A stretch of DNA of 64,000 bases from an uncultured Lachnoanaerobaculum sp. (GCA_938015485.1 CALLVU010000128.1:4427-68426); one strand, 5' to 3'. Positions 6,401 through 32,610 are shown, numbered from the stretch's first letter. Translations and numbers: made by a program. The notes: generated from the letters alone by a model not told the origin.

Positions 6401-6422
6401 AATGATAATTTTAGGAGGGCAT

Positions 6423-8945: not shown

Positions 8946-10490
8946 ATGGGTATACATATAAATAAAAAAAATATTATGGAAAAGTCATGGAGTATGAGAA
9001 ATAACATAAAAACAACAAAAGATCGTGCGTCTGTTATATTCAGGAGTATAGAAAACTTTAATTATACAGAAAGCATTCTTATGGGAAAGGCATGGGATGC
9101 GGCAAGAGAATACACAAATAAGGTTCAACTTCCTATACTTAGAATGTATATAGAATATTTGGAACTTGATGATGAAGCTTGTGGTAAATATGCAAGGGCA
9201 GCAAGTAAACTGCCGGGTTACGAAAAGCTGGATGAAGATGTCATAATAAACAAAAAAGAAAAATTTGAAAGATTACTTGATAGAGAATATAACAGAACTA
9301 ATCCAAGAGATACAATTATAATGTTCTATGAGAAGCGAATAGATAGATGTGAAAGACTGTTAATGTATATAGAAGATTTTTGCTGTGAAGTACATAATAT
9401 ATTTGCAGAAGTATTGTCAGTTAAGTGGCAGTTATATAGTTTACATAACAATTTAAAAATGATAAGTATTGACGAGAGAACCAATACAATGGTGGAACCT
9501 GCAGGTAATGAGAATATAAAAAGTATATTAAAGGATTTAGAAAAATATTATGCTGAAATAAAGGAAAAGGATTTGTTAAAAAGGAAAAATGAACTAAATG
9601 ATTTATATACGAATTATGGTGCAAGGGTAGTTATAGAGAATGTTCTTAATTATCCCGAAGAGAAACGTTTATATAGTGATATAGAAAAAGAAGACTATAT
9701 AATGCTTGCAAAGGCACTTATGGAAAGCCGTGGTGAAGCATATATAAGTAATGTAAAATTAACTCTGACAAATTGCTATGACTTTGAGAAGGCCCTTTCT
9801 GATTTTGAAAATGATATGCCAAAGGTTAGTTATATATACGAGAAAAATGACAAGATGGATAAAGTACGAATCGGATTAAGCAGCTTAATAGAAAGATTAA
9901 ATAAGGATACAGCCATTACAGAGATACAGAATGAAAAAGTAAGAGATGACAGACAAAATCTGATGCAACTTACACAAGCCTTTTTATCTCTATGTGCTTA
10001 TGAACATAGAATAGTAAAAGATAAAGTTGAGCTTTATGAAAGTGATGCAGATCCGGTAAAGATAAATGTAAGTCGAGACAGTAAAGATAATCTTGAAATT
10101 AATTTTAAAGAGTATGCGGAGACCGTCGAAGGTGATGCAAATTGGAGAGATTATAAGGATATAAGTTTGATAGTATCTGCTCCTAAGACAGGAGAAGATG
10201 CCGGTATAGGTGTAAGTGGAGAAGGTTGGGATTATGTAGAGCATGGATTTGAAATTGATAAAGCAAAATACTATAGTATCGGTAACAGTATTGGAAAGGC
10301 AGGTTTAACTATTTATATAGGAAATCTGGGAGTAAACTTAGGAAAGATATTTGGCGGAAAGGTAGGTACAGCACTGGGAAAATTGGGAGATGCATATACT
10401 GTTATGGGATGTGCTTCCGAAATCTCAGATATACTGAGTGAAAAAGACCAAAAAATATTTGAAAAAGGAAAAAGTACAAGTGAATTATAG
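8946..10490 (+). CDS. LXG-domain T7SS effector, copy 1 (514 codons up to an in-frame TAG)
   Basis: N-terminus MGIHINKKNI...SILMGKAWDAAREY...LPILRMYIEYLE fits the LXG domain. C-terminal Gly-zipper segment GNLGVNLGKIFGGKVGTALGKLG. Same frame as 10512..10847. Confidence 0.8.
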   Translation: MGIHINKKNIMEKSWSMRNNIKTTKDRASVIFRSIENFNYTESILMGKAWDAAREYTNKVQLPILRMYIEYLELDDEACGKYARAASKLPGYEKLDEDVIINKKEKFERLLDREYNRTNPRDTIIMFYEKRIDRCERLLMYIEDFCCEVHNIFAEVLSVKWQLYSLHNNLKMISIDERTNTMVEPAGNENIKSILKDLEKYYAEIKEKDLLKRKNELNDLYTNYGARVVIENVLNYPEEKRLYSDIEKEDYIMLAKALMESRGEAYISNVKLTLTNCYDFEKALSDFENDMPKVSYIYEKNDKMDKVRIGLSSLIERLNKDTAITEIQNEKVRDDRQNLMQLTQAFLSLCAYEHRIVKDKVELYESDADPVKINVSRDSKDNLEINFKEYAETVEGDANWRDYKDISLIVSAPKTGEDAGIGVSGEGWDYVEHGFEIDKAKYYSIGNSIGKAGLTIYIGNLGVNLGKIFGGKVGTALGKLGDAYTVMGCASEISDILSEKDQKIFEKGKSTSEL

Positions 10491-10511
10491 ATTCCTGTAA
10501 ATAAATTTAAT

Positions 10512-10847
10512 TTGGGTTATGTGTCATCGTGGATAAGAGAAAATGTTCCTAATGGTGAAAAAGATTATAATATCAATACATATATGTATACTATTTATCC
10601 AAGTTATACAGTGGATGTATATGAAGGTGTTAAGCCAACCACAAAATTGATAGACATCTGTAATAAGAATTTATCTAAGGGAGGAAGACTTGAAGAATAT
10701 GCAGTTGAACTTGGATATGATGAAAGTAACCCTATAACAGTTGATAATATATGTAGTAGACTATATGAAATAGAACAAATGAGGGTAAAGAGTTCGGATA
10801 TTAAAAATAGGATTAAAAGAACAGTAGATATTACATCAGAGGAGTAG
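10512..10847 (+). CDS. C-terminal continuation of LXG effector copy 1 (in frame after the TAG at 10488..10490)
   Basis: The frame is open from 10491. FNLGYVSS and NLSKGGRLEEYAVELGYDESNPITVDNI align with FNLFYVSS and NFSKGGYFEKYAKEMKYDESNPITEENI of the intact paralogue 17925..19799. Confidence 0.7.
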   Translation: MGYVSSWIRENVPNGEKDYNINTYMYTIYPSYTVDVYEGVKPTTKLIDICNKNLSKGGRLEEYAVELGYDESNPITVDNICSRLYEIEQMRVKSSDIKNRIKRTVDITSEE

Positions 10848-12285: not shown

Positions 12286-13353
12286 ATGATTGAAATAAAA
12301 GTAAAAAACATTGATTTAAATATTGAAAAAGAAATCAGATTTCTTTTGGCAAATGAGAATAAACATTTATTGGATTGTGAAATAGAAGAGACGGATGATG
12401 AGTGTATATTCAAGTTTGATGATGAAGGACTATATGGGTTTGAAACAGTAGATGCACTCAGTAAAGAAGAGAAGTACAGGCTTTTGGTTAATATAGCGGA
12501 TATAGAGGAATTAAGTGAGGAATACTGCTTTTGCCTTTCACCTTCAAATATAGTATATGACATAAATCTTGTACCGAAAATTCTTATTAGAGACAAAAGA
12601 ACTAAAGAGTCTGATTTTTATATTCAATATAAAGCGATTGTTTCAAGCGTACTTTACAATAAATATACTTTTGAACAGTATATCGGTGGAAGTGCAAAGG
12701 TTCCTGAAAAGAGTTTTATAAAAAACATAGATGATACAAAAAGTTTGAAGGAAGAACTGCTGAAAAGATATTTAAAAGAGAGAGAAACAAACATTAATAC
12801 TAAGGTGCAGGTAAAGAAGTCAGAATACAAGAAATTAAAACTTTCAATACCGATTACAGCTCTTATAGCTGTGGGAATACTTGTATATGGTATTTTTGTA
12901 CAATTTGTAAGATTGCCGTATAAAGAAAATCTGATAACAGCCTATGGAAGTTATATGAGTTCAGATTATATAAAGGTTGAAGACACTCTACAGAGTATAA
13001 AAATTGAAAAGCTTCCAAAGGATGTGAAGTATATATTGGCAAGATCATATATATTTACGGAAGGTTTGACTACCGAGCAAAGAGATAATTTACTTGAGTA
13101 TACCGATATTAATATAGATACAAATATATTTGATTTTTGGATAGCACTTGGAAGATGTGAATTTGATACGGCAGAGGATATTGCAAAGAAGATAGGTAAC
13201 AATGAATTTCTGTTATTCACATATATCAAGCATAGTGCATATCTAAAAGCCGATGTAACTATAACAGGAGAAGAAAAAGAGAGTGCTATAAGTGATTTGG
13301 ATAAAAAGATAAAAGAGTTGAGTGAATCAATGGGGGTAAATAAGCAAGAATGA
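12286..13353 (+). CDS. essB: Type VII secretion protein EssB/YukC
   Basis: 355 aa. Cytoplasmic N-domain, central TM (LSIPITALIAVGILVYGIFVQFV), C-terminal ectodomain. Its stop overlaps the essC start (ATGA). Confidence 0.75.
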   Translation: MIEIKVKNIDLNIEKEIRFLLANENKHLLDCEIEETDDECIFKFDDEGLYGFETVDALSKEEKYRLLVNIADIEELSEEYCFCLSPSNIVYDINLVPKILIRDKRTKESDFYIQYKAIVSSVLYNKYTFEQYIGGSAKVPEKSFIKNIDDTKSLKEELLKRYLKERETNINTKVQVKKSEYKKLKLSIPITALIAVGILVYGIFVQFVRLPYKENLITAYGSYMSSDYIKVEDTLQSIKIEKLPKDVKYILARSYIFTEGLTTEQRDNLLEYTDINIDTNIFDFWIALGRCEFDTAEDIAKKIGNNEFLLFTYIKHSAYLKADVTITGEEKESAISDLDKKIKELSESMGVNKQE

Positions 13354-17636: not shown

Positions 17637-17909
17637 ATGAAGGGAACAATATCTAATAATGCAGCGGTAGCAGACAATATGAGGCTTGATATTTTAAAGA
17701 ACAGTGACAGTTTTTCGCGCGAGAGAGGTGATATAGGGCTTGATTGTACAAATGCAGATGTTCAGTCAGATTGTATGGAGTGCTTAGAATTTTCAGTCGG
17801 CTTTACAGAGGAATGTAAGCCCTATATAGAAAATTTTACAGAATGTATAAAAGGAATAAGTGAGTCAATGCAAGAAAAAGATAAGGGATTTTTTGGATTT
17901 TTAAAATAA
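17637..17909 (+). CDS. Small LXG-associated helper-like protein (paralogue of 8662..8928)
   Basis: 90 aa, directly upstream of LXG copy 2. Shared motifs as for 8662..8928. Confidence 0.6.
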   Translation: MKGTISNNAAVADNMRLDILKNSDSFSRERGDIGLDCTNADVQSDCMECLEFSVGFTEECKPYIENFTECIKGISESMQEKDKGFFGFLK

Positions 17910-17924: not shown

Positions 17925-19799
17925 ATGGGTATACGTATAAATAGAAACAATATACTGGAAGAGACAAGGTCAATCAGAGGAAGTATTGAGAAAACTAAAC
18001 ATCAAGTTTCACTTATCTTTGAAAGTATAAATAAATTTAATGATACTAAGGATGTGTTGACAGGTAAGGCTTGGGATTCTTCCAGAGAATACTCGGATAG
18101 TGTGCTGTTACCGGTTCTCAGAATGTATATAGAGTGTTTGGATTTAGAGTATGATGCAAATACAAAATATAGTGAATCAGCCGAAAGACTACCCGGGTAT
18201 GAAAAGCTTGATGAGGATATAATAATCGCAGCAAAGGAAAAGTATGAAAGACGACTTGATAGAGAATATAATAGGGAACATCCAAGAAATTCGGTTATAA
18301 ATTTTTATGAGAAGAAGATAGCAAGATGTGAAAAACTTTTGGATATTATATGTGAATTTTGTGATGAAACTTCGGGAATATTTGACGAGGTAAAGTCAAG
18401 GCAGGACTATTTGAGCAGATTGCATTACTACCTAAAGATGATAAATGTGGATAAAACCACAGGAGAAATGCTGCTACCACCGGGTAGTGTAAATATACAG
18501 TATGCAAAGGATGAAATAGACAGATACTATAGAGGTATAAAGAGTAAGGAGCTTATAGAAAGGGAAAAAGAACTTGAAGAGATATATAAGTTAAAAGGTG
18601 CAAAGGCTGTAATTCAAAATATCCTTACAAAACCTGTAGAGGGATGTCTGAATACAGATATTGAATCGGCAGAATACACTATGATAGCAAGGCTTATGGT
18701 AGAAAGTAGAGATGATGAATATGTAGAACTAGTAAATACGGCTGTGTACTATTGCTATGAGTATGAGAAAACAATGAGTAATCACCAAGGGTATTTCGAT
18801 ACTGTTAATGATATTTATAAGAAGAATGATAAGGTGGATAAGATACTTGGTGGACTAAATAATTTTGGTTTACATATGAATTTTAATGTAAAAAATGAAC
18901 AAGGTGATATTGGAAAGTTGATAGAAGACAGAAGGTATTGGATGCAACTTTCACAAGCATTTTCAGAGTTATCAACATATGATGCAAAGATTGTAGCAAC
19001 CAAATTATATAGTAGAGAAAGTGATAGGTACCCGGCAAAAAGCAAAGGATATAATGTAGAAGTAAAGCAAGATGTAAGCCATCAATTAATAATAAGTTTT
19101 TTGAAATATGGAGGAGATGTAGGTGGTACAAGTACTACTCCTTATGAGCAACAAAAAGATGTGAGGATTATAGTAGGTCAACCTGCTAGTGGAGGTAGTG
19201 GTGAATCAGAGGCGCTGAAAGGTTCTATGGAGTATGTGTATTATGGAATGGAAATGGATAATACACTTCCGGGGACCGTAGTTAAAAGTTCATCAAATTG
19301 TGCAATGACACTTGCCTTAGGAGCATATGCACCTACAGTAGGTAATGCAGTTACAGTATTAAACGCGGCAAAAGAAATATCAGCTGAAGCAGTTGGCGAA
19401 AAAAGAAAGTTGTATAAAAAAGCTGAATATATGCAATCTATAGGTAAGGTTGTGCAGATATTTAATTTATTTTATGTTTCATCAGTAGTAGAAGAAGATG
19501 GTAAAAAAGATGTTAAAACTCAAAATTGTGGTATTTTTCCAAGGTACAGGATAGATGATCCGGAAAATTTGCCAACTTCGGAATGTATTGAGAATTTTAA
19601 CATAAACTTTTCTAAAGGTGGTTATTTTGAAAAGTATGCAAAGGAAATGAAATATGATGAAAGTAATCCTATTACAGAAGAAAATATAGTTAAGAGAGCA
19701 AGCGAAATAGATTGTATGCTGGAAAAATTAGAAACTGAAATGTCAAAGAATGGAATGGTTACATTTGATATTGAAAATGTTGTTAGGAGAATGAAATGA
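17925..19799 (+). CDS. LXG-domain T7SS effector, copy 2 (intact, 624 aa)
   Basis: MGIRINRNNI...DVLTGKAWDSSREY...LPVLRMYIECLD (LXG). Small-residue-rich segment LALGAYAPTVGNAVTVLNAA. C-terminal NFSKGGYFEKYAKEMKYDESNPITEENI. Confidence 0.85.
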   Translation: MGIRINRNNILEETRSIRGSIEKTKHQVSLIFESINKFNDTKDVLTGKAWDSSREYSDSVLLPVLRMYIECLDLEYDANTKYSESAERLPGYEKLDEDIIIAAKEKYERRLDREYNREHPRNSVINFYEKKIARCEKLLDIICEFCDETSGIFDEVKSRQDYLSRLHYYLKMINVDKTTGEMLLPPGSVNIQYAKDEIDRYYRGIKSKELIEREKELEEIYKLKGAKAVIQNILTKPVEGCLNTDIESAEYTMIARLMVESRDDEYVELVNTAVYYCYEYEKTMSNHQGYFDTVNDIYKKNDKVDKILGGLNNFGLHMNFNVKNEQGDIGKLIEDRRYWMQLSQAFSELSTYDAKIVATKLYSRESDRYPAKSKGYNVEVKQDVSHQLIISFLKYGGDVGGTSTTPYEQQKDVRIIVGQPASGGSGESEALKGSMEYVYYGMEMDNTLPGTVVKSSSNCAMTLALGAYAPTVGNAVTVLNAAKEISAEAVGEKRKLYKKAEYMQSIGKVVQIFNLFYVSSVVEEDGKKDVKTQNCGIFPRYRIDDPENLPTSECIENFNINFSKGGYFEKYAKEMKYDESNPITEENIVKRASEIDCMLEKLETEMSKNGMVTFDIENVVRRMK

Positions 19800-20260
19800 C
19801 TGGAAATAAAAGAAAAGGCATTTTATTATTAATTTTTGTTATTGTAGCTGTATACATTGTGAATCAGATAGCCTTTTTTCATGATAAGGAATTTGAAAGA
19901 GCAGTTAGGGATACACTTGAAGCACCATATATGTCATTTACGACGAAAAGAAACAAGCCGATATTAGGAATTATCTGGAAGAAAGACTTAGAAAACATAA
20001 TAATGGTGTCATTAGATCTTAGAGAATATCATGTTAAAAATATAAGTGATATAAGGTATTTCAAAGATGTAGATTCAATTTGGCTTATTTATAGGAGTGC
20101 TTATGAGGGTGACACAAGTATATATGAAGAGGAAAATTTACTTAATAATATATATGTTGCTAAAAACTTTAAGAATTTAAGTATGATATCATTGTATCAT
20201 GTAAAAGTAAATAAAGATATTAAGGCAATGTTTCCTAATGTAGATGTAGTTATTGAGTAA
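19796..20260 (+). CDS. TM-anchored mini-LRR protein (candidate immunity, paralogue of 10852..11334)
   Basis: ATGA overlap with the LXG gene stop. 154 aa. TM plus IAFFHDKEFERAVRDTL...VKNISDIRYFKDVDSIWL. Confidence 0.6.
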   Translation: MTGNKRKGILLLIFVIVAVYIVNQIAFFHDKEFERAVRDTLEAPYMSFTTKRNKPILGIIWKKDLENIIMVSLDLREYHVKNISDIRYFKDVDSIWLIYRSAYEGDTSIYEEENLLNNIYVAKNFKNLSMISLYHVKVNKDIKAMFPNVDVVIE

Positions 20261-20488
20261 ATGTCTTTTATATTTATTATCATCTGTATTTTGTTATTTA
20301 TTGAGATACAGATGATAGTAGTGGTGTTTGTCAGAGTATGCCGGTTCAGTGTCCGGAAGAGTATTTGATTTAAGCAAAGGATAGAATAAATATAATGATT
20401 AGGAATTAGGTTTTATACAGATATCGTAGGTTTGCGTTATAGGCTAACACAGGCATTACCGGTATTCCTAAAAAGTGTGAGGTTTAAG

Positions 20489-20752
20489 ATGAGCAGATAT
20501 GATAGTGATAAAGAAAAATCACAGGAAGAATATGAATTAGCGCTAAAAGAATTTACTATTGAAAAAGAGGAGCGTGAGGATATCTATAGAGAGTGTAGAG
20601 AAATAGATAAAACATTGATAGATTGTTTAGGGTATTGTAATGAAACTGAACTTATGGAGGAGGAATTTATAGAATTTAAAAAACAAAGTGATAGAGAAAT
20701 GCAGGAAATGGAAGATAAATTAATAAGCTTAAAAAAGAAAATCGAAGAATAA
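20489..20752 (+). CDS. Small acidic coiled-coil protein (paralogue of 11378..11650)
   Basis: ATG at 20489 after GTGAGG; the track's TTG at 20432 is less likely. 87 aa. Confidence 0.55.
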   Translation: MSRYDSDKEKSQEEYELALKEFTIEKEEREDIYRECREIDKTLIDCLGYCNETELMEEEFIEFKKQSDREMQEMEDKLISLKKKIEE

Positions 20753-20876: not shown

Positions 20877-23339
20877 GTGGTTGACGGTGACGGTCTGGTA
20901 AGTGAGTACAGTTACGATAAAATGTACAATCTTGTAGGAATAAGACAGTACAAAAAAGGTAATGAAAATGACTGTATGATAAGAAGCTATCATAGAAACA
21001 ATATGGGCAGAATATTTAAAATAGAAAATGCCGACAGTACTTATAAAACTATGGATTATAACAGTCTTGGACAAGTGGTGAAAAATATTGATGAAGACGG
21101 TTTTAAAACAGAGCTGAAGTACAATGAAGCCGGACTTTTAACTTTGATGAAATGTTCTGACGGAAATTATGTAAACTATGAGTACGACGGTAACAGATTT
21201 TTGAAAGCCATATCAGGAAGCTTTGGAACTATGAGCTTTGAAAGAGATAAGAAAGGCTTGGTGAAAAAGGCTTTAACTACAGACGGACACAATATTGCTT
21301 ACGAATATGATAAGTTCGGAAGAACTGTGGCTATAGTATATCCTGACGGTAAGAAGGTAGGCTATAACTATGATAAAAAAGGTAGACTTATAGAAACCGT
21401 TTCAGGAAATGAACATATCAGGTTGACTTATAACAGTTTGGACAGACTTGAATCAAGAGAGTATAGCGATGGAAGCAAAACATGCTATGAGTACAATGAT
21501 ATCGGAAGTCCGACAAAAATAACGCATATCAGTGATGAAAAAATCAATATGGAATATACTTATACATATGATTTGGTGGGAAATAAGACAGGTATAAGTA
21601 TCAATAGGAACGGCAGTGTAAAGGATTACAATTATTCTTATGATGAGGTGGGAAGAATCACAAAAGTTGTATTGAACGGAAAAGTGCTAAGAGAATACGG
21701 CTATGATATCTTCGGAAACAGAACCGATAAAGTAGAATATTCCAAAGATGAAGTGATTACCACAAAATACATATATAAGGGAGGAAAACTCGCAGAAGAG
21801 CTTATATCTAAGAATAACAGTTTGATTCAAAAAAGGTATGAGTATGATAAGAGAGGAAATATTATCAAGAAGTTTTCCGGTGGTAAGCTTGAAGCAGAGT
21901 ACAAATACAACGGATTGGGACAACTTATAAGTGTCATATCCGGTAAAAACAGTGTTACATATGAATATGACGGACTTGGTCACAGAATAGGTAAGACAGA
22001 GAGCAATGGAAGCGAGTCACATACTACAAGCTATGTAATTGATATCAGAAAAAAGACTGATAATATATTGTGGCAAAACAGTGATGGAAATGAGAGAAGT
22101 TTTGTATGGGATATTCAACTGATATCAGAGGTGGAGGATGATGACAGCGCCAATATCATATGTGATGAGCTTGGAAGTGTAATACTTGAAGGGGAGGAGC
22201 TTTTTGAGTACTCAGAGTTTGGAGAAGTGCTCGGAAGCAAACCAAAGAACTTCGGATTTGCCGGTCTCATGGTAGATGATATAAGCGGAAACTATCTTTC
22301 AGCTACAAGAATGTACGATGAAAATCTGGGAAGATTCCTTGGAAAGGATAAAATCAAGGGAGATCTAAGATATGGATTTACTCAGAACGAGTATACTTAC
22401 TGCTATAATTCACCACTGATATTTGTGGACAGTACAGGAGAATCACCGGCTGCAAATGCACTTACCTCAGTCTTAGACACTACAGAGAATTATATAAGGT
22501 ATGTAATGTTTTTAGGCATATATAGTGTAGTAGATGTAACTACTAAAAATATTAGAGCAGGTCTAAACTTAGTTCAGGATGAAGTGGTAGATGATATTGC
22601 AAACTCAGGTTATACCTATTGGAAAGAGAGAGTTGCAGACATTGAAAAAGATGCGATATCAAAAGATGTGTATAATAAAATCAAGAATATTCGAAAATTT
22701 GCTGAAGACAGTGGGCTCAGTGATAAATTAAATGAAATAACGAGAAGCAGTATTGCGGATGTAGTACTTAATAATTTTGACTTTTACAAGGATGATAAAG
22801 GAATTATTCATACAATAAGTCTTTGTTGGCAGTCGCATTGGGGATATAACAATTTTATTGATTTTGCATTTAATTCCTTTTCATCTATGAATAGAGGAAA
22901 GTTTAAATTTGGAAGTGGAGATGATGAGTTTACACTTTGGATGTGGAAAGGAGATTATTTTAACTTTGGAGCCGGAGGTGAAATTGGCATATACAAAGGT
23001 AATAAATGGCATGTAGATTGCTATACTCAGAGTAAACTTAAAATGAATTTGGATATAAGGCTAAAAGATGGTACACAGGTAATAGATTGGGATGCTAACG
23101 ATTTATATCAGTGGTGGATAACAGGGTTTAATCCGGATAAAAGATTTCAAGATGTAAAGGCTGAAGATTTAGTAATGACAGGTATGGTTGACTTTAATGA
23201 GGAAAGAGTTATGTGGAAGGGGTTCGTACATACAGCAGAATTCGATGATCAAAATGTAGATAAGATAAATGATAACTGGTGCCTTGATTTTGTACATCGC
23301 AATGCTGTAATGAAATGGAAAGGAGGAAATAAAAACTGA
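20877..23339 (+). CDS. RHS/YD-repeat protein, 5'-truncated fragment with C-terminal toxin-like domain
   Basis: YD repeats throughout (SEYSYDKMYNLV, YEYDKFGR, YNYDKKGRL...). The repeat-like frame is open back to a TAA at 20790 with no start or N-terminal domain. Core-end motif RMYDENLGRFLGKD...NSPLIFVDSTGE (P-x4-D-x2-G) at about 22413..22440, then ~298 aa of unrelated sequence. Confidence 0.8.
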   Translation: MVDGDGLVSEYSYDKMYNLVGIRQYKKGNENDCMIRSYHRNNMGRIFKIENADSTYKTMDYNSLGQVVKNIDEDGFKTELKYNEAGLLTLMKCSDGNYVNYEYDGNRFLKAISGSFGTMSFERDKKGLVKKALTTDGHNIAYEYDKFGRTVAIVYPDGKKVGYNYDKKGRLIETVSGNEHIRLTYNSLDRLESREYSDGSKTCYEYNDIGSPTKITHISDEKINMEYTYTYDLVGNKTGISINRNGSVKDYNYSYDEVGRITKVVLNGKVLREYGYDIFGNRTDKVEYSKDEVITTKYIYKGGKLAEELISKNNSLIQKRYEYDKRGNIIKKFSGGKLEAEYKYNGLGQLISVISGKNSVTYEYDGLGHRIGKTESNGSESHTTSYVIDIRKKTDNILWQNSDGNERSFVWDIQLISEVEDDDSANIICDELGSVILEGEELFEYSEFGEVLGSKPKNFGFAGLMVDDISGNYLSATRMYDENLGRFLGKDKIKGDLRYGFTQNEYTYCYNSPLIFVDSTGESPAANALTSVLDTTENYIRYVMFLGIYSVVDVTTKNIRAGLNLVQDEVVDDIANSGYTYWKERVADIEKDAISKDVYNKIKNIRKFAEDSGLSDKLNEITRSSIADVVLNNFDFYKDDKGIIHTISLCWQSHWGYNNFIDFAFNSFSSMNRGKFKFGSGDDEFTLWMWKGDYFNFGAGGEIGIYKGNKWHVDCYTQSKLKMNLDIRLKDGTQVIDWDANDLYQWWITGFNPDKRFQDVKAEDLVMTGMVDFNEERVMWKGFVHTAEFDDQNVDKINDNWCLDFVHRNAVMKWKGGNKN

Positions 23340-23911
23340 TGAAAATTAAAATTAGTATATTATTTTTAATAGCATGCCTGCTTACAGGATGTACGTCAGT
23401 AGTTGAAACTGTAAAATATATACATGATTCCGGTAAAATAGATAATTATATATATGGTGATGCAAAAGTGGCGAATGAATATATCGAAAAGATAGTACAG
23501 GCTTTAAATACTAATGATAGGGAGCTGTTAGCAAGCCTCTTTCCTGAGCATGCAAGGAGTAAGATAGATCATTTTGATGAAAAGATAGACTATATTATTA
23601 GAGAGAATGAGATTTGGCCGGGTTCGATAATAAGATATAAGCTTAATGAAGATAATAATTATCAATCAAGTTCCGACATGGGAAAAGTACAAAAGGTTAT
23701 ATATGCTAATACTACTATAGAATTTGCAAAGCCGAAAGAGAATGAATATAAAAAATTTGATTTAAGCATTGGAATGGAAATAGTTACTGTAGATGATTTT
23801 AATGAGAACAATGTAGGGATATCCATATTTGCTATTGGTGAGGGTGATTTTAATAAGGATGAAGTGGATAAAGAAAAAGATGGGTATGATATATATGCAT
23901 TTGGACACTAA
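23339..23911 (+). CDS. Lipoprotein (DUF5104-like), candidate immunity to the RHS C-terminal domain
   Basis: Lipobox LLTGC. 190 aa. Start overlaps the RHS stop (TGATG). LASLFPEHARSKID resembles DUF5104 as I recall. Confidence 0.65.
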   Translation: MKIKISILFLIACLLTGCTSVVETVKYIHDSGKIDNYIYGDAKVANEYIEKIVQALNTNDRELLASLFPEHARSKIDHFDEKIDYIIRENEIWPGSIIRYKLNEDNNYQSSSDMGKVQKVIYANTTIEFAKPKENEYKKFDLSIGMEIVTVDDFNENNVGISIFAIGEGDFNKDEVDKEKDGYDIYAFGH

Positions 23912-23928
23912 TGATAGGAGATAAGAAT

Positions 23929-24234
23929 ATGGAAATTAAATCAAATATTGCCGGTATGGTAAATGCGGAGAATAATTATGATGTGTTTAAGTATAGGTTA
24001 AATTTAAGCAGGGAAGATTTAGTAAATATTCTAACAGATATTGATAATTATTGGATTGGAAGAAGTGGAGACAGCTTTAAATATATTTGTTGGTATTTAA
24101 AAATTTTATTGGATACAGGATATGAAGAATTGACCGGACTAAAAAATGAAATTACTGATTCAAAGAAATATATATATGATAATGACTATAATCTTTCGAA
24201 TCAGATACAAAGTAAGGAGCATATAAAAGTATGA
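23929..24234 (+). CDS. Divergent WXG100-like small protein
   Basis: ATG at 23929 after GGAG. ~101 aa. Central NYWIGRSGDSFKYICWYL gives WxG plus downstream aromatic residues. Confidence 0.5.
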   Translation: MEIKSNIAGMVNAENNYDVFKYRLNLSREDLVNILTDIDNYWIGRSGDSFKYICWYLKILLDTGYEELTGLKNEITDSKKYIYDNDYNLSNQIQSKEHIKV

Positions 24235-24812
24235 AAAAAATAATATTTCTTATTATTGCATCAGCGCTTTTAATATCAGCCTGCTCAAGTGTCAAAAATA
24301 CAGTGGACGGTGCAAAGAGTGAGATTACAAAAAATGATAAGCAGCCTCCTGAGGAAAAAGAATATAAAGATAAGGTGATTGCTGCAATGGATGATCAAAA
24401 TGCTAATGCACTGAAGGCACTGTTCTCAAAGAATGCAAGAGATAACATAGAAGATATGGACTTTAAAATTGCATTATTGCTTAAGAGGTATAAGGGAAAG
24501 TCAAAGAGTGTAAAGTATGACAGAAATTTTCCCGTAGTTACAGAAGACAAAGAAAAGGGAATAAAAAGGATTGAGACTTATTATGTTGTCAAGACAGATG
24601 GTGGTAATATAGATTTTATGTACCTTCAGGTTGTTGCCAAGGATGATGAGGATCCTGATGATGTAGGTATAAGCTCTATGATGTATTCGCCTGAGATTTG
24701 GCAGATTACTATGGATGACAGCAACAGAGGATATTATCTTTGGGTAGACAATCCGCTTTGGGCAGATTTTGTCCAGCCGGATGATGTTATGACTACAGAG
24801 AGCAGTAGGTAG
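24231..24812 (+). CDS. Lipoprotein (DUF5104-like), second immunity-type gene
   Basis: Lipobox LISAC. 193 aa. ATGA overlap with the previous gene. LKALFSKNARDNIEDMD. Confidence 0.6.
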   Translation: MKKIIFLIIASALLISACSSVKNTVDGAKSEITKNDKQPPEEKEYKDKVIAAMDDQNANALKALFSKNARDNIEDMDFKIALLLKRYKGKSKSVKYDRNFPVVTEDKEKGIKRIETYYVVKTDGGNIDFMYLQVVAKDDEDPDDVGISSMMYSPEIWQITMDDSNRGYYLWVDNPLWADFVQPDDVMTTESSR

Positions 24813-24824
24813 GCAGATCTTTTG

Positions 24825-24860
24825 GAACTCCTATGAAAAAACACATAGGAGTTCTGTTGC
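24825..24860 (+). terminator. Hairpin terminator-like element
   Basis: GAACTCCTATG (24825..24835) / CATAGGAGTTC (24844..24854), an 11-bp perfect stem. The T tract after it is weak (TGTTGC). Confidence 0.45.
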
Positions 24861-24973
24861 TATACAAACAATATGTTAGGTAATATCAGGTACATAATTT
24901 AGATAAAGTATTGAAATATATTTTAAGAATTCAATAAAGCTATGAGTAGTTTACTTTGATAAAGAGGAGAAAA

Positions 24974-25000
24974 ATGTGGAAAGGAGGAAATAAAACCTGA
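24974..25000 (+). pseudogene. Scar of an RHS toxin 3' end (MWKGGNKT*)
   Basis: ATGTGGAAAGGAGGAAATAAAACCTGA matches the last codons of 20877..23339 (..MKWKGGNKN*). It has the same TGATG overlap with the following lipoprotein gene. Confidence 0.75.
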
Positions 25001-25572
25001 TGAAAATTAAAATGCTAATGGGGATTTTAATATTAAGTTTACTTACAGGATGTACGTCAGTAGTTGAAACTGTACAATATATACATGACTCCGGTAAAAT
25101 AGATAATTATATATATGGTGATGCAAAAGTGGTAAATAAGTATATAGAAAAGATAGTCGAAGCATTTAATACTAATGATAGGGAGCTGTTAGCAAGCCTG
25201 TTTCCTGAGCATGCGAGGAGTAAGATAGATCATTTTGATGAAAAGATAGACAGAATTATCAGGGAAAATGAAACATGGCCGTCTTCTATAATAAGGTATA
25301 AGCTTAATGAAGATAACAATTATCAATCAAGAGCTGACAGGGGTAAAATCTATAGAGAGGTATATGCTAATACGACCATAGAGTTCGCAGACCCTAAGGA
25401 GGGAGAAGTACATAGACCAAGCTTAAAGATTGGTATTGTAATAGTACCTGTAGATGATTTTCACGAAAATAATGTTGGAATTTCTATACTTGCAATGGGT
25501 TATGAAGGCTTTAATAAGGAAAATGTGGATAAAGAAAAAGATGGATATGATATATATGCGTTTGGACATTGA
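25000..25572 (+). CDS. Lipoprotein (paralogue of 23339..23911), orphan immunity-type gene
   Basis: 190 aa, lipobox LLTGC, collinear with 23339..23911 at high identity by eye. Confidence 0.7.
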   Translation: MKIKMLMGILILSLLTGCTSVVETVQYIHDSGKIDNYIYGDAKVVNKYIEKIVEAFNTNDRELLASLFPEHARSKIDHFDEKIDRIIRENETWPSSIIRYKLNEDNNYQSRADRGKIYREVYANTTIEFADPKEGEVHRPSLKIGIVIVPVDDFHENNVGISILAMGYEGFNKENVDKEKDGYDIYAFGH

Positions 25573-25670: not shown

Positions 25671-26129
25671 ATGAATTATACATTATCATTTTACTTGGGA
25701 ATATTTACAATAATATGCATGATTGTGGTGAGCAGAATAGCCTTTTTTAAGGATGAGGAGTTTCTCAGAGCGGTAAGAGATACTATGGGGAAAAATCGTA
25801 TGTCTCTGGCAAATAAAAGAGAGAAGCCCATCAAGGGTATCATTTGGAAAAAGAATTTAAAGAAGATGAACTTCTTATCAATCAATTTTAAGGACTACCA
25901 TGTGAAAGATGTAAGTGACCTTGAATACTTTAAGAATGTTGAGACAATTATCTTGACATATATGGGAGATAATGAGGAAGATATCGGCATGTATGATGAG
26001 GAACATGTCCTTGATAATCTGAATAAAGTAAGGGATTTTAATAAGCTGAGAAGAGTGCAGTTATATCATCTGAACGCAGATAAGAGTGTGAAGAATGAAT
26101 GTCCGAGAGCAATAGTATATATAGACTAG
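25671..26129 (+). CDS. TM-anchored mini-LRR protein (cassette 1)
   Basis: ATG at 25671 (MNYTLSFYLGIF..., compare MSYTITFYLGIF at 29257). RIAFFKDEEFLRAVRDTMGK...VKDVSDLEYFKNVETIIL. Confidence 0.6.
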   Translation: MNYTLSFYLGIFTIICMIVVSRIAFFKDEEFLRAVRDTMGKNRMSLANKREKPIKGIIWKKNLKKMNFLSINFKDYHVKDVSDLEYFKNVETIILTYMGDNEEDIGMYDEEHVLDNLNKVRDFNKLRRVQLYHLNADKSVKNECPRAIVYID

Positions 26130-26153
26130 TTTTTACGGTAAGGAGAGACATAG

Positions 26154-27551
26154 ATGAAATTAGAGTATAAAAAACGGATATATTGGTTGCTTAGGTTTAT
26201 ACTTATTATATGTGTAATCAATGTACTGACCGGATTCTATGAGTTTTGTACTTCGAGCAAAAATGCAAATGCAAACCAAATCATATGGAAAGGCGAGAGG
26301 TACAATAAGACCGAGACAGGATATCACAGTATAGATGAGCTTAAGTATTTGGTGGATATGCCGACAGATTGTGACGTGAAAGATATCTGGGCGGTGGCAA
26401 GTTATTATGCAAAGGATGACAGTGAGTGTGGTACAAGACTGAAGGAACTTAAGGGTATATATGATGAAGGTGGAGCAAAGGCTGTAGTAGAGGATATCAT
26501 GTCTAAAGATGTTGGAGATGATAAAAAGACTATGATGGAGTACCTGATAGTGGACGGTTGCCTAATAGAAAGCCTTGGTAACGACACGGAACTGCTTAAT
26601 AATGTCCTTGAACACTGCTATGACAGAGACTATGGATTCCTTGGATATAAAAGATATATTGATATAGGAAATAAGCTCTATAAAAAGAACGGGAAGCTTG
26701 AAAGAATTATTGAAGCATTTGAAACTTTAAGCAAGTATACAATTGATCGTGCAATTGTGATGCCAAAATCAGAAGATGGGGATGAAAGTGCAACTGAAAC
26801 GGTATACTATCATCGCATGATACAACTATTCCAGACATTCTCAAGCTTATCATATTTTGACGATAATCTTTTAGCGGCAAAATCATATCCCGGGATGGAT
26901 AATAAGAAATATGTTGTGAAGGCAGCTATAACAAAACATTATGATATTATTTTAAGTTATAAAAAATATAAATCATTTATAGATCTTGGACATATCAGTA
27001 TATATGGAAGATATAAGAATCTGAATATGATAATAAAGAGTGTATCAATTAGAGATTTGGATGATTTTGATATTACAAATTATATATCATTAAAAAGTCC
27101 TGCAACTTATATGGTAAATGATAAGTTAGTCAGTCTAAAAATTGTATCTGAAATTTTTAGACTTTGTGGTACCTATGTGATCGTATATGATTTGGATATA
27201 CATACGCTCGAAGGCTTAAGCTACGGATTTTATCCTGTACTTCCGGTGTATAGTTACTTTGATATATACAATGTAGTTGCATCTCCTGACAGTCACTATG
27301 TAGATACAATAGAAGCTATAAAAAATTTTAATACAAATTTTTCAAAAGGCGGTTATCTGGAAGAATTTGCAAATGATGTAGGCTACGATGAAAATAACCC
27401 GGTAACATTGGAAAATTTCGGTGAGAAGATAGATGAACTTTGCAATATGGAAGAAAAAGTTAATAGATTTTTGTATATAGGATATAATATCAATATAGAC
27501 AGTATTGTAAATGATTTTACCGGAAGAGAACCGTTGCATAAGAAAGATTAA
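26154..27551 (+). CDS. TM-anchored paralogue of the LXG-effector body lacking the LXG domain (cassette 1)
   Basis: 465 aa with its own RBS (AAGGAGAG). N-terminus MKLEYKKRIYWLLRFILIICVINVLTG (TM). Middle aligns to LXG2 residues ~190-400 (ELKGIYDEGGAKAVVEDIM / ELEEIYKLKGAKAVIQNIL; LYKKNGKLERI / IYKKNDKVDKI). C-terminal NFSKGGYLEEFANDVGYDENNPVTLENF. Confidence 0.7.
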   Translation: MKLEYKKRIYWLLRFILIICVINVLTGFYEFCTSSKNANANQIIWKGERYNKTETGYHSIDELKYLVDMPTDCDVKDIWAVASYYAKDDSECGTRLKELKGIYDEGGAKAVVEDIMSKDVGDDKKTMMEYLIVDGCLIESLGNDTELLNNVLEHCYDRDYGFLGYKRYIDIGNKLYKKNGKLERIIEAFETLSKYTIDRAIVMPKSEDGDESATETVYYHRMIQLFQTFSSLSYFDDNLLAAKSYPGMDNKKYVVKAAITKHYDIILSYKKYKSFIDLGHISIYGRYKNLNMIIKSVSIRDLDDFDITNYISLKSPATYMVNDKLVSLKIVSEIFRLCGTYVIVYDLDIHTLEGLSYGFYPVLPVYSYFDIYNVVASPDSHYVDTIEAIKNFNTNFSKGGYLEEFANDVGYDENNPVTLENFGEKIDELCNMEEKVNRFLYIGYNINIDSIVNDFTGREPLHKKD

Positions 27552-27557
27552 AAGGGG

Positions 27558-27611
27558 ATTTCCGAGAGCAATAGTGTTTATAAACCGGTTTTACGGTTAG
27601 GAGATACATAT
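27558..27611 (+). pseudogene. Scar of a deleted mini-LRR gene 3' end plus conserved inter-cassette RBS region
   Basis: TCCGAGAGCAATAGTGTTTATAAACCGGTTTTACGGTTAGGAGATACATAT matches 26102..26153 (end of 25671..26129 plus spacer). Confidence 0.65.
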
Positions 27612-28982
27612 ATGAAATTAGAGTATAAAAAGCGGATATATTGGTTGCTTAGGTTTATACTGATTGTATGCGTAGTCAATGTGCTGACCGGTATGTATGA
27701 AGTATTTACTTCCAACTATAATGTGACAGCAAACCAAATAATATGGAGAGGTGCAAGATACAACTGGTATGGAAATATATACCGTAATATAGACGAGCTT
27801 GAAAACTTATCCGAACTTCCAAAAGAGTGTGATATAAGGGATATTTGGGAGGTAGCAAGTTATTATGCAAAGGATGATGCCGAGTGTGAGTCAAGGCTTA
27901 GAGAGCTTGAAAATATATATAATGACCAAGGTGAAAAGCAAGTCATAGAAAATATTCTTGAGCATGATTTAGGCGATGATAAGAAAACAAGAATGGAATA
28001 TCTTATAGTAGCAGGAATCCTGACAAAAGATTTAGATAAAGGCACAGAATTATTGAATACTGCATTAAACTATTGTTTTGACAGGGACCTTGGAGTGCTC
28101 GGTTATAAAAGATACATTGACATTGGAGATAAGCTGTACAGAAAAAATGAAAAAGTAGAAGAGTTAATTAAAGCGTTTGAAATTTTAAGTAAATATACGG
28201 TTGATTATATGTCGAGTGCAGAAAAGATATTGGATGAAGACCGTAGAGATACATATATAAGGCAGTATTTCAGCATGATACAGCTGTTTCAAACATTTTC
28301 AGGTATAGAATACTTTGATAATAATCTTATATCGGAAAAATTATATGGAGGAGATAATAAGAAGTATATTATAAGAGCGGTTAAAAGTGATAGTACTGAT
28401 ATTTCGTTGCATTATAGAATGTATAAACCATTTATAAAGTTGGGGAAATTAGAGATATATGGTAGGTATAAAAATTTAGATATGCGGGTATATGGTTTAA
28501 TGATTGGAAGCCTGGATGATCGTGATGTAACAGATTATATTTCGCTGAAATATTTGTCAACGATGACATTTATTAGAAGACTTAATCATTTAGAAGCTAC
28601 TTCTGATATTTTCGAACTTTGTGCCGCATATACACTTGTATATGATACAGATATACATTTGATAGAAGGAACAGCTTATGCTATTTACCCGACATATAAA
28701 ATATTTGATTACCATGGTTATAAAGATATGGTTGATACAAAAGACGCTATAAGAAATTTCAACGCAAATTTTTCAAAAGGCGGATATTTTGGTGAGTTTG
28801 CAAAAGAGGTGGGATATGATGAAAACAATCCTATTACTGAAGAAAATTTTGGTGAAAGATTAGTTGAAATATTTGACATGCGATATAGATGTTATGAAGT
28901 TTTAGGTGAAGAATATGGTTATGATATTGACTGTATTACATTAGACTTGAGTGGTAAAGAACCGTTAAAAAGAAAAGAGTAA
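27612..28982 (+). CDS. TM-anchored paralogue of the LXG-effector body (cassette 2)
   Basis: 456 aa. N-terminus MKLEYKKRIYWLLRFILIVCVVNVLTG. C-terminal NFSKGGYFGEFAKEVGYDENNPITEENF. Confidence 0.7.
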   Translation: MKLEYKKRIYWLLRFILIVCVVNVLTGMYEVFTSNYNVTANQIIWRGARYNWYGNIYRNIDELENLSELPKECDIRDIWEVASYYAKDDAECESRLRELENIYNDQGEKQVIENILEHDLGDDKKTRMEYLIVAGILTKDLDKGTELLNTALNYCFDRDLGVLGYKRYIDIGDKLYRKNEKVEELIKAFEILSKYTVDYMSSAEKILDEDRRDTYIRQYFSMIQLFQTFSGIEYFDNNLISEKLYGGDNKKYIIRAVKSDSTDISLHYRMYKPFIKLGKLEIYGRYKNLDMRVYGLMIGSLDDRDVTDYISLKYLSTMTFIRRLNHLEATSDIFELCAAYTLVYDTDIHLIEGTAYAIYPTYKIFDYHGYKDMVDTKDAIRNFNANFSKGGYFGEFAKEVGYDENNPITEENFGERLVEIFDMRYRCYEVLGEEYGYDIDCITLDLSGKEPLKRKE

Positions 28983-28994
28983 AGGGAGAAGATT

Positions 28995-29111
28995 ATGGCG
29001 GAATATACTATGGATGACAGCAACAGAGGATATTATCTGTGGGTAGACAATCCGTTTTGGGCAGACTTTGTCAATCCTGATGATGTTATGACTACAGAAA
29101 GTGAAAAGTAA
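28995..29111 (+). pseudogene. Chimeric micro-ORF: glpK RBS plus codons 1-5 fused in frame to the last 33 codons of a 24231-type lipoprotein gene
   Basis: MAEYT|MDDSNRGYYLWVDNPFWADFVNPDDVMTTESEK*. 28960..29008 matches 31079..31127. The remainder matches 24708..24812. Confidence 0.8.
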
Positions 29112-29126
29112 TACTATTGTTTAGAG

Positions 29127-29157
29127 CCCCTATTTGAAAGGGTATGGGGGTTCTTTT
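29127..29157 (+). terminator. Rho-independent terminator-like hairpin
   Basis: CCCCTAT / ATGGGGG stem (one G-U pair) followed by TTCTTTT. Confidence 0.45.
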
Positions 29158-29256
29158 AATATATAAAAATATTGAAATATAGCAAAAATATTTATAAAAT
29201 AAACATATAATAATAACTGAAATGTACGTGATTTTAAACAGGAGGAAGAATTAAAT

Positions 29257-29715
29257 ATGAGCTACACAATAACATTTTATTTAGGCATATTTATAATTAT
29301 TCTAATATTTTTAATGGAGAGAGTAGCATTTTTTAAGGACGAAGAATTCTTGAGGGCTGTGAGAGATACTATGGGTAAAGATCGTATATCTTTGGCAAAA
29401 AGACGAGAAAAGCCAATAAAGGGTATTATCCGGAAGAGTCCTTTGAGGAAAATAAAATTTCTGTCTATAAATTTTAAAGACTATCATGTGAAAGATATTA
29501 CTGATTTAGGATATTTTAAGAATGTTGAAACTATAATACTAACATATATGGGTGATGATGAGGAGGATATAGGCACATATGAAGAAGAGAATGTACTTGA
29601 TAATTTGCATTTTGTGAAAAATTTTAAGAACTTGAGAAGAGTACAGTTATATCATCTAAAGATAAATTGTGATGTAAAAGCTGTATGCCCAAATGCAAAA
29701 GTATTTATAGACTAG
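29257..29715 (+). CDS. TM-anchored mini-LRR protein (cassette 3)
   Basis: 152 aa with RBS GGAGG. Close paralogue of 25671..26129. Confidence 0.6.
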   Translation: MSYTITFYLGIFIIILIFLMERVAFFKDEEFLRAVRDTMGKDRISLAKRREKPIKGIIRKSPLRKIKFLSINFKDYHVKDITDLGYFKNVETIILTYMGDDEEDIGTYEEENVLDNLHFVKNFKNLRRVQLYHLKINCDVKAVCPNAKVFID

Positions 29716-29739
29716 TTTTAGCATTAAGGAGGGATTTGC

Positions 29740-31101
29740 GTGAAGTTAAAGTACAGAAATAGAATATATATTGCCTTAATATTGATACTTGTTGTATGTA
29801 TAATCAATGTATTGACAGGCATGTACGAACTAATGTCTTCAGACTATAATGTGATAGCGAATCAAATAATATGGAACGGAGCAAGATATAACAGGGATGA
29901 AAATGAATATAAAAGAATAGATAATCTTGAAAATATAGTAGAAATTCCAAAAGATTGCGATGTAAAAGATATATGGGCAGTGGCAAGTTATTATGCAAAG
30001 GATGATGTCGAGTGTGATGCGAGATTAAAAGAACTTGAAAAAATATATGATACCGAGGGGAAGAAGGCTACTGTAGAAAATATTTTGTCCCAAGAATTAG
30101 GCAACAATAAAAAGACTGTTATGGAGTATCTGATAGTAGACGGTATTTTGATATCAAGCTTAAGAGAGGATGAGAAACTACTGAATACTGTGCTTGAATA
30201 CTGCTTTGACCGTGACTATGGATTTTTTGGGTATAAGAGATATATCGATATCGGAAATAAGCTGTACAGAAAAAATGAAAAGCTGGAAGAGATTATTAAG
30301 GCGTTTGAAATTTTAAGCAAATATACGATAGACCGTGCAATTGCGATTCCTGAAGCAAAAGATGAGGATGAAGGTGCGGTAGAAACGGGATATTATCATG
30401 GTATGATACAACTATTTCAGGCATTTTCGAGTATGTCATATTTTGCTGATGATCTTTTATTGGAAAGGTCGTATCCGCACGGTGATAATCGGAAATATAT
30501 TGTCAGGGCAACTATAAAAGAAGATTATGATATTGTCTTATCATACAAGAAGTATAAATCATTTATAAACCTTGGAAATATCAGTATATATGGTAAATAT
30601 AAAAATTTGAATATGATTGTGCAATATACGGGTTTCGGTTATTTGGATTATCGAGATATTGAAGAGAATATAGAGTTTAGAAGTATTGCAATTAGAAAAG
30701 TATATGATAAGTTATTCGAAATAGATATTATGTCAGATCATTTTGGATTGCGTAGTACATATGTGCTTATATATGATACGGATATGAATACAATAGAGGG
30801 GTTCAGCTATGGTATTTATCCGGGATTTGCTCTTTTTAATGAAACCAATACAGACACTCCGGAGGCTATAAGAAATTTCAACACAAATTTTTCAAAAGGC
30901 GGTTATTTTGGTGAGTTTGCAAATGAGGTGGGATATGATGAAAACAATCCGCTTACTTTAGAAAACTTTGGTGAGAGAATGGATGAAATATGGGATATGA
31001 ATAAGAAAACTTTAAAAGTATTGGGAAAAGACTACAATATCAGTATGGAAATGATTGTAATGGACTTGAGTGGGGAAGAACCGTTAAAAAGAAAAGAGTA
31101 A
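29740..31101 (+). CDS. TM-anchored paralogue of the LXG-effector body (cassette 3)
   Basis: GTG start after AAGGAGGG. 453 aa. MKLKYRNRIYIALILILVVCIINVLTG. C-terminal NFSKGGYFGEFANEVGYDENNPLTLENF. Confidence 0.7.
   Translation: MKLKYRNRIYIALILILVVCIINVLTGMYELMSSDYNVIANQIIWNGARYNRDENEYKRIDNLENIVEIPKDCDVKDIWAVASYYAKDDVECDARLKELEKIYDTEGKKATVENILSQELGNNKKTVMEYLIVDGILISSLREDEKLLNTVLEYCFDRDYGFFGYKRYIDIGNKLYRKNEKLEEIIKAFEILSKYTIDRAIAIPEAKDEDEGAVETGYYHGMIQLFQAFSSMSYFADDLLLERSYPHGDNRKYIVRATIKEDYDIVLSYKKYKSFINLGNISIYGKYKNLNMIVQYTGFGYLDYRDIEENIEFRSIAIRKVYDKLFEIDIMSDHFGLRSTYVLIYDTDMNTIEGFSYGIYPGFALFNETNTDTPEAIRNFNTNFSKGGYFGEFANEVGYDENNPLTLENFGERMDEIWDMNKKTLKVLGKDYNISMEMIVMDLSGEEPLKRKE

Positions 31102-32610
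<1,509 letters not shown>

Follow-up and report, generated by a model that had tools for sequence, protein, structure and literature searches.

Glycine zippers are the toxic, membrane-inserting element of TelE and EsxX, two toxins of type VII secretion systems (T7SS) (PMC10434224, PMC12744356), which also possess an LXG domain and small helical partner genes located 5' of the toxin gene. Such extracellular glycine-zipper toxins, released by T7SS or type VI secretion systems, are countered by the membrane-bound immunity proteins TsaI (against TspA), ExiC and ExiD (against EsxX) and Tsi5 (PMC12744356, PMC7456083), which also occur as orphans in antitoxin islands (PMC12744356). Orphan toxin modules, as described for E. 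faecalis OG1RF_11111/11113/11123 (PMC7790226), are devoid of an N-terminal secretion domain and lie 3' of the full-length effectors to which they are paralogous. Here, we analyzed an array of three large open reading frames (ORFs), named Big1, Big2 and Big3, and two small leucine-rich repeat (LRR) genes within a 64,000-nt stretch of DNA, in the following the window, from an uncultured Lachnoanaerobaculum sp. (GCA_938015485.1, CALLVU010000128.1:4427-68426). The window, annotated by ORF calls and Pfam matches, is a T7SSb locus from an oral Lachnoanaerobaculum, and its two LXG effectors are referred to as LXG1 and LXG2. Our best guess is that all three Bigs are functional proteins that descend from these glycine-zipper LXG effectors.

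BLASTP aligns residues 95–294 of Big1 with residues 213–417 of LXG2, the closest full-length T7SS effector relative of the Bigs in the window (28% identity over 213 aa, E=7e-16), and matches the C-terminal modules (C-modules) of both proteins with 48% identity over 58 aa (E=2e-13); the match of Big1 to LXG1 reaches E=4e-6. The Big paralogues are mutually 54–66% identical, Big1 and Big3 sharing 60% over their full length. In Big1, a basic N-terminus is followed by a hydrophobic helix (residues ~9–31), the effector body (~91–295), a variable stretch (296–380) in the place of the Gly-rich insert of the effectors, the C-module (~381–440) and a tail. An earlier reading of this DNA made from the sequence alone (the sequence-only reading) had called three large ORFs related to the middle part and C-module of the effectors and devoid of both the LXG domain and the Gly-rich segment. 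The ORFs were recovered exactly where it had placed them, and the comparisons bear out both the homology and the two absences. At E<=0.1 no match to the Pfam LXG domain (PF04740) was obtained for Big1–3, while LXG1 and LXG2 match it weakly, and a family alignment of 14 sequences (eight T7-type relatives and six anchored members) leaves the first ~125–190 effector residues without counterpart in the Bigs. All eight T7-type relatives carry a Gly/Ala/Ser-rich insert of 92–113 aa with 25–38% G+A+S and 6–14 small-xxx-small motifs, whereas the corresponding stretch of the six anchored members comprises only 41–54 aa with 14–22% G+A+S and 0–2 such motifs; in the Bigs themselves there are 0–1 and no GxxxG, as opposed to six GxxxG motifs in the intact LXG1 zipper. 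LXG1 and LXG2 resemble TelE and EsxX in their LXG domain, their small helical partner genes and their Gly-rich hydrophobic segment, with the difference that this segment is internal and followed by a conserved ~80-aa C-module, and the Bigs possess neither the LXG domain of TelE and EsxX nor a zipper of the TelE, EsxX and TspA type. The C-module of the Bigs is the one common to the effectors and not an alternative toxin domain. Unlike LXG toxins, the Bigs have an LRR gene or another Big on their 5' side, with no small helical Lap-type partner genes, and on their 3' side Big2, a duplication-scar ORF or glpK, with no immunity gene downstream.

We found no Pfam or NCBIfam family for the Bigs, and a sequence profile search of the PDB returned no match for them and none to solved T7SS proteins for LXG1 and LXG2. 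AlphaFold2 (AF2) models of Big1 (predicted local distance difference test score, pLDDT, 69.3; predicted template modeling score, pTM, 0.75) and of the C-terminal 136 residues (pLDDT 69.6) were compared to the PDB with Foldseek, which yielded no match at E<0.2 for the former and none at E<4 for the latter. As neither a family nor a fold match is available, we argue the role of these proteins from architecture and context, and it is from these that we infer their topology, lack of toxicity, toxin binding and protective effect.

Residues 1–8 of the Bigs carry a net charge of +1 to +4 and are followed from about residue 9 by a single hydrophobic stretch of more than 20 residues (Kyte-Doolittle, KD, 19-mer values of 2.1–2.8), and no second such stretch is present. 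The basic N-terminus noted by the sequence-only reading is thus present, as is a hydrophobic segment at the place of its postulated transmembrane (TM) helix, and such a segment behind a net-positive N-terminus is kept in 116/116 full-length cluster representatives. The ribosome-binding sites it had assigned are likewise found, as AAGGAG-type sequences 6–8 nt 5' of all three Big starts. Direct reading of the N-termini revealed no lipobox. Given this leader and the positive-inside rule, body and C-module are predicted to be located outside the cell. A conserved A/V-x-A|NQ motif at residues 38–40 would also be compatible with a signal peptide that is cleaved off rather than an anchor; the length of the hydrophobic stretch of more than 20 residues favors an anchor. 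An in situ origin of the TM helix from the final helix of the LXG domain was also considered. MAFFT and BLAST paired Big residues 5–32 with LXG residues 128–146 (YKKRIYWLLRFILIIC..EFC versus YEKKIARCEKLLDIIC..EFC), but 84/300 shuffles attained the local score and neither Big2 nor Big3 reproduces the pairing, and this derivation was rejected as unsupported.

The array is located directly 5' of glpK in 14/14 Lachnoanaerobaculum loci examined (L001–L010, L019–L021), with one to three Bigs per site, and the Big ORFs are intact in eight named species or strains as well as in metagenome-assembled genomes (MAGs). L. saburreum possesses one LRR-Big cassette and L. orale and L. sanguinis harbor LRR-Big1 plus a 427-aa variant; several strains share the arrangement of the window, and in others the cassettes are interleaved with genes for DUF5104 lipoproteins (immunity-type) and WXG-like proteins. 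Ratios of nonsynonymous to synonymous substitution rates (dN/dS), calculated according to Nei-Gojobori, lie at 0.13–0.48 for the Bigs overall with a median of about 0.25: 0.26 (range 0.17–0.48) for Big1, 0.28 for Big2, 0.24 for Big3, 0.13 for the 427-aa variant and 0.18–0.34 for pairs of Big paralogues (dS 0.6–2.0). The neighboring immunity-type genes range from 0.07 to 0.24. Individual values are 0.07 for LRRc and 0.24 for LRRd, the two LRR genes of the array, 0.14 for the lipoprotein gene at 24231–24812, 0.16 for LXG2 and 0.06 for GlpK. These ratios, rather than the values near 1 by which simple decay had been expected to reveal itself, indicate that the Bigs are under purifying selection and are not decaying fragments. 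A true decaying orphan is available for contrast in L. sanguinis, where a 75-aa degenerate C-module fragment is followed by an LRR gene (L006:1669-1896). Between species (window versus L001–L010), dS amounts to 0.23 for Big1 and 0.19 for LRRc as compared to 0.78 for the adjacent glpK, which suggests that the island has been exchanged between Lachnoanaerobaculum species more recently than its flank.

Since the Bigs are LXG-less and located 3' of full-length effectors as are orphan modules (PMC7790226), and since the paralogues recombine with each other, they might be regarded as silent or incidental 5'-truncated effector copies that serve for swapping into full-length LXG genes. At the 5' end, classical orphans and the full-length gene are more than 75% identical in nucleotide sequence, and the orphans encode a different C-terminal toxin followed by its immunity gene (PMC7790226). 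The Bigs, in contrast, lack such nucleotide homology, have the C-module in common with the effectors, have lost the insert and gained a hydrophobic export signal, carry their LRR gene 5' instead of 3' and are subject to purifying selection. At the nucleotide level, the array matches the LXG genes only over 93–105 nt of the C-module at 72–80% identity, besides weak LRR matches, and with a longest exact match of 14–16 nt the Bigs cannot recombine with LXG1 or LXG2 here. The presumed toxic insert, which a reservoir would donate, is absent. Together with the own ribosome-binding site and start, the conserved export signal, a dN/dS of about 0.25 maintained over dS values of up to 2 and the quite different appearance of the genuine L. 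sanguinis orphan, this renders such a role very unlikely, and the suggestion of the sequence-only reading that the array is a recombination reservoir for the effectors was abandoned. Its other suggestion, a functional, T7SS-independent exported family, is indirectly supported by dN/dS, the intact ORFs, the invariant helix and a second origin of the same architecture.

This second origin emerged from a profile search of 1.84 billion representative sequences, which retrieved 49 matches only and defines a narrow family confined to Lachnoanaerobaculum and few metagenomic relatives. The full-length matches comprise the Big cluster, the LXG-type proteins P0122, P0123, P0140 and P0143, the proteins P0152 and P0163 with another N-terminal domain, and P0137. 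The latter is a protein of 403 aa with basic N-terminus, TM helix, body and C-module but without the zipper, so that the TM-plus-body architecture for which the sequence-only reading had proposed to search does exist elsewhere. We derived relationships from an identity matrix and nearest-neighbor bootstraps. Over 286 shared columns, the identity of P0137 amounts to 46% with the LXG-type P0140 as compared to about 20% with the Bigs, and P0140 is its nearest neighbor in 500/500 bootstraps. Moreover, P0137 is encoded in a T7SS locus (L012) in the very slot that in a related strain (L013) is held by P0140 and an overlapping TM-LRR gene, and both loci have the downstream flank in common (82% nucleotide identity). 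As P0137 is closer to P0140 than to the Bigs, loss of the LXG domain, gain of a leader and loss of the zipper arose at least twice; alternatively, instead of repeated origin, the bodies may have been converted by local effectors. In a word-indexed search, P0137 is a singleton, with no further members of this second lineage. A low-coverage contig (L015) encodes a third anchored form, which has another leader and one in-frame stop and shares about 36% identity with the Bigs. Clusters of N-terminal fragments were considered as new lineages and rejected, as they are frameshifted pieces of Lachnoanaerobaculum Bigs.

With respect to function, we tentatively favor the view, formed by analogy, that the Bigs are Sec-exported, non-pore-forming toxin mimics that serve as extracytoplasmic immunity or decoy factors. 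A Sec-type signal-anchor, which might be a signal peptide that is cleaved, would have replaced the T7SS-targeting LXG domain, so that body and C-module would be displayed outside on the membrane of the producing cell itself or set free. The lost Gly/Ala/Ser-rich insert would represent the membrane-inserting toxic element, by analogy with TelE, EsxX and TspA. Through the common body and C-module, the Bigs would bind incoming toxins of the family, or the docking or oligomerization partner of these toxins, and would poison pore assembly, possibly in concert with the neighboring TM-LRR protein. Deletion of GXXXG motifs or of a Gly-rich stem converts oligomeric pore toxins into dominant-negative inhibitors (PMC6380060), as exemplified by VacA delta6-27, which has lost three GXXXG motifs, and by stem deletions of leukocidins. 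As proposed for the Bigs, these have lost the insertion segment and kept the oligomerization surfaces; they are, however, laboratory mutants of unrelated toxins, and for the Big family this likeness is the proposed mechanism and oligomerization is putative. No naturally encoded, membrane-anchored form that serves in immunity has been described. The broader idea that a glycine-zipper T7SS toxin has repeatedly been turned into its own antidote, i.e. a surface-displayed dominant-negative mimic acting alone or with a TM-LRR partner, appears more doubtful.

Purifying selection, conservation of the site at glpK, the invariant leader, the absent insert, the recurrence of the architecture and the island context all speak for toxin mimicry. 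In addition, four loci (L002, L019–21) have full arrays although LXG2 is absent between essC and rhs; these strains may still carry LXG1. In L010 (MAG CAKAHN010000001, 1-11400), the T7SS core is apparently deleted at the locus, with fragments of the lipase gene and of the start of EsxA abutting Rhs, and Rhs itself is in three pieces, yet LRRc, Big3 and the genes for the lipoproteins have remained intact. Several points weigh against it. Retention in L010 is uneven, with Big1 split and LRRd truncated. The toxicity of the Gly-rich insert is assigned by analogy only, LXG2 has no strict GxxxG motif, and AF2 yielded models of moderate confidence (pLDDT about 69) without PDB match. TM-LRR proteins, whose genes adjoin the LXG genes, are already good immunity candidates, so that a second factor is not required, and the tight LRR-to-Big operon resembles an immunity-toxin pair in reversed order. 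Finally, we know of no described precedent for a toxin-derived immunity protein of 450 aa. To our knowledge, the characterized immunity proteins of T7SS, type VI secretion systems and contact-dependent inhibition are all unrelated to their toxins. The literature searched contains no exported, LXG-less and zipper-less effector paralogue. The impression of the sequence-only reading that there is no described precedent thus extends to Pfam, NCBIfam, the PDB and the literature searched, absence from which is not proof.

In the main rival explanation, the Bigs are themselves Sec-exported toxins with an active C-module and a cleaved signal peptide, the upstream TM-LRR protein provides immunity and one family uses two export routes. 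In line with this, LRR and Big lie 24 nt apart and were duplicated as one unit, a TM-LRR gene is paired with every effector of the family, and the A/V-x-A|NQ motif, with ALA|N as its equivalent in P0137, fits a signal peptidase I site. Sec signal peptides are furthermore a recognized trafficking route of polymorphic toxins (PMC3482391), and the mosaic C-terminal halves with their hypervariable patches are reminiscent of such toxins. The core of the C-module, however, is the most conserved and not a polymorphic part of the Bigs, and the segment that was lost twice independently is the one resembling known toxic elements. Big2, the 427-aa variant and P0137 are all without adjacent LRR gene. The immunity-first order would also be the reverse of the LXG-then-LRR order at the same locus, and the hydrophobic stretch exceeding 20 residues favors an anchor. 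LRRc, moreover, stays 95–98% identical while segments of Big1 are swapped (e.g. in L006), i.e. LRRc and Big1 do not co-vary. We therefore consider Sec-exported toxins unlikely.

A producer-side accessory is yet another conceivable role: an anchored paralogue might dock, chaperone or co-assemble with the secreted LXG toxins, for instance for contact-dependent hand-over, or act as a self or kin receptor. A homotypic interaction is plausible given the common body and C-module, and the Bigs are always linked to a T7SS locus. On the other hand, the poly-immunity island, flanked by the Rhs toxin and glpK, harbors them together with TM-LRR genes at its far end and away from the core genes, arrays are kept where LXG2 is absent between essC and rhs, Big3 is retained at a locus that has apparently lost its T7SS core, and copy-number variation and mosaicism would be unusual for a part of the machinery. 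We judge such an accessory role improbable.

Toxin-derived immunity or decoy factors, by comparison, would fit the genomic behavior of the array, since tandem paralogues beside a T7SS, copy-number variation and recombination are what characterizes a T7SS immunity array. The immunity arrays of esaG and tipC (PMC9484751) are likewise strings of non-identical paralogues with copy-number differences, mosaics and deletions between conserved blocks, but they belong to an unrelated protein family, and the repeat unit of the Bigs also carries LRR and sometimes lipoprotein genes. TsaI, ExiC/ExiD and Tsi5 are, as the Bigs are predicted to be, membrane proteins of T7SS-linked islands, often in several non-identical copies, and the membrane pair of ExiC and ExiD parallels that of LRR and Big; they also occur in toxin-less strains, as the Bigs may do. 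They are polytopic and unrelated to their toxins, however, whereas the Bigs are predicted to be single-pass or secreted, are homologous to toxins and are known from sequence alone.

The array itself was built by duplication and reshuffled by recombination. The sequence-only reading had described three cassettes of one LRR and one large gene; all three Bigs are present, but only two intact mini-LRR genes, and of the middle one a 28-nt remnant is left. The middle cassette hence once had an LRR gene that has since been lost, and there were three cassettes historically. Repeats D1 (Big1/Big3) and D5 (LRR) have an identical spacing of 3586 nt, which shows that LRR and Big were duplicated as a single unit. 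In the scar behind Big2, the initial 5–6 codons from glpK are joined to the final ~32 codons from the lipoprotein gene at 24231–24812, and since this chimera follows Big2, Big2 formerly abutted glpK. The segment from the lipoprotein tail to Big3 was accordingly added by a tandem duplication that created LRRd-Big3. The terminator-like hairpin behind the scar is a copy of a hairpin at 24823–24856 (-20.3 kcal/mol) that follows the same lipoprotein gene; both were found by RNA folding and missed by a terminator scan, and they suggest that the array is split into two transcription units. Big3 and glpK are separated by 12 nt without terminator hairpin, and glpK may be co-transcribed with LRRd-Big3 or have its promoter inside Big3. 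A promoter scan was uninformative in this AT-rich DNA (87 sites observed versus 67 expected). Rfam matches are restricted to two tRNA genes at 59860–60037 in the window, with none inside the array. Recombination among the Bigs has produced mosaic genes: in the window, Big1 and Big2 are 90% identical over the first 30 residues and about 50% over the remainder, and the 427-aa variant is 86–100% identical to Big1 of the same genome over residues 1–180 and 25–70% thereafter. Hypervariable patches lie at ~301–330, 361–390 and 421–450.

The mini-LRR proteins give no direct Pfam LRR match above threshold. LRRb, the mini-LRR gene at LXG2, aligns at E=5e-12 with the N-terminal portion of a TM-LRR protein of 282 aa, which passes Pfam LRR_4 with 34.9 bits (cut-off 27) and whose gene overlaps that of an LXG-type relative at the latter's stop codon; it is this homology that justifies the name. 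LRRc is homologous to TM-LRR proteins encoded directly 3' of LXG effectors and is 90–98% identical between species, and the search for its homologues returned Lachnoanaerobaculum proteins only. Imm-LRR is a known immunity class of polymorphic toxin systems (PMC3482391), and the mini-LRRs resemble it in being encoded right after LXG effectors and in forming solo copies in poly-immunity loci (L001, L006); they differ in being very short (about 150 aa with 2–3 repeats), TM-anchored and below the Pfam LRR thresholds. In L. sanguinis and L. orale (L006 1-3700, L001 3000-5300), additional arrays of solo TM mini-LRR genes constitute a heterogeneous poly-immunity locus 5' of Rhs. In L006, a degenerate piece of the C-module is present in addition, together with copies of a TM protein (250 aa) that has its homologue at window positions 2010–2756, beside the Mbeg1-like lipase.

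The features of the window are collected in Table 1.

Table 1. Features of the T7SSb locus and of the LRR-Big array (window positions)
Feature	Coordinates	Strand	Remarks
Mbeg1-like lipase	2746-4503	+	
EsxA	5709-5999	+	
EsaA-like	6402-8531	+	
88-aa helical gene	8662-8928	+	precedes LXG1
LXG1	8946-10490	+	514-aa ORF
111-aa ORF	10512-10847	+	LXG1 C-module, TTG start
LRRa	10852-11334	+	TM mini-LRR
EssB/YukC	12286-13353	+	
EssC	13350-17615	+	
90-aa gene	17637-17909	+	precedes LXG2
LXG2	17925-19799	+	624 aa: LXG domain, body, Gly/Ala/Ser-rich insert, C-module
LRRb	19796-20260	+	TM mini-LRR, overlaps LXG2 stop codon
Rhs fragment	20877-23339	+	820 aa
Three lipoprotein genes and WXG-like gene	23339-25572	+	
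Array under study	25671-31101	+	LRRc to Big3
LRRc	25671..26129	+	mini-LRR, 152 aa (alternative GTG start 25665); N-terminal TM helix (KD 2.19), short LRR ectodomain; 24 nt 5' of Big1
Big1	26154..27551	+	465 aa
LRR 3'-end remnant	27562..27589	+	28 nt, then shared spacer (remnant plus spacer 27562-27611) and ribosome-binding site of Big2; alignment with LRRc-Big1 and LRRd-Big3 junctions
Big2	27612..28982	+	456 aa, Big1-like architecture
Duplication scar	28995..29111	+	38-codon chimera; repeat D7, 78% identity
Terminator-like hairpin	29123..29154	+	followed by UUCUUUU; folding -17.3 kcal/mol, z = -2.6
LRRd	29257..29715	+	mini-LRR, 152 aa, 24 nt 5' of Big3
Big3	29740..31101	+	453 aa, GTG start, Big1-like architecture; stop 12 nt before glpK
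glpK	31114-32610	+	

LRRa adjoins LXG1, and LRRb adjoins LXG2. LXG1 (8946..10847) is broken in the window by an in-frame TAG at 10488–10490, where orthologues have TGG (Trp); the remaining ORF stops just past the glycine zipper and leaves the C-module as a separate ORF in frame. Intact orthologues comprise 633–635 aa (L011, 633 aa; P0122, 635 aa), and the gene of L016 is likewise uninterrupted. The Rhs fragment corresponds to only the C-terminal part of a protein of ~1795 aa known from other strains, which in L002, L005 and L019–21 is encoded directly after essC and a 107-aa gene. In the window, the 90-aa gene, LXG2, LRRb and a 106-aa gene stand where the N-terminal half of Rhs would be, and the remnant therefore probably cannot be secreted. 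A conserved acidic helical protein of 90–106 aa is encoded after each LXG-LRR pair (11378–11650 and 20432–20752) and also 3' of the anchored protein on L015 (1415–1687); by analogy with ExiAB/TipE, it could be a cytoplasmic neutralizer of the zipper.

Given the narrowness of the family, with its 49 matches among 1.84 billion representatives, the immediate reach of these findings is limited. Even if the Bigs should have another role, be it as Sec-routed toxins or as docking factors at the surface, they illustrate that the scaffold of an effector can change its export route, leaving the T7SS for the general secretory pathway, with loss of the same two segments in at least two lineages. If the Bigs do act as immunity or decoy factors, a disarmed and exported toxin paralogue would constitute a new route to immunity, toxin-derived immunity being a class undescribed for interbacterial toxins, and would represent in nature what dominant-negative pore toxins are in engineered form. 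The Bigs would then also help to locate those parts of the glycine-zipper LXG toxins that are responsible for docking or oligomerization outside the cell, and as Big genes occur in cultivable oral species, the proposed role is directly testable.

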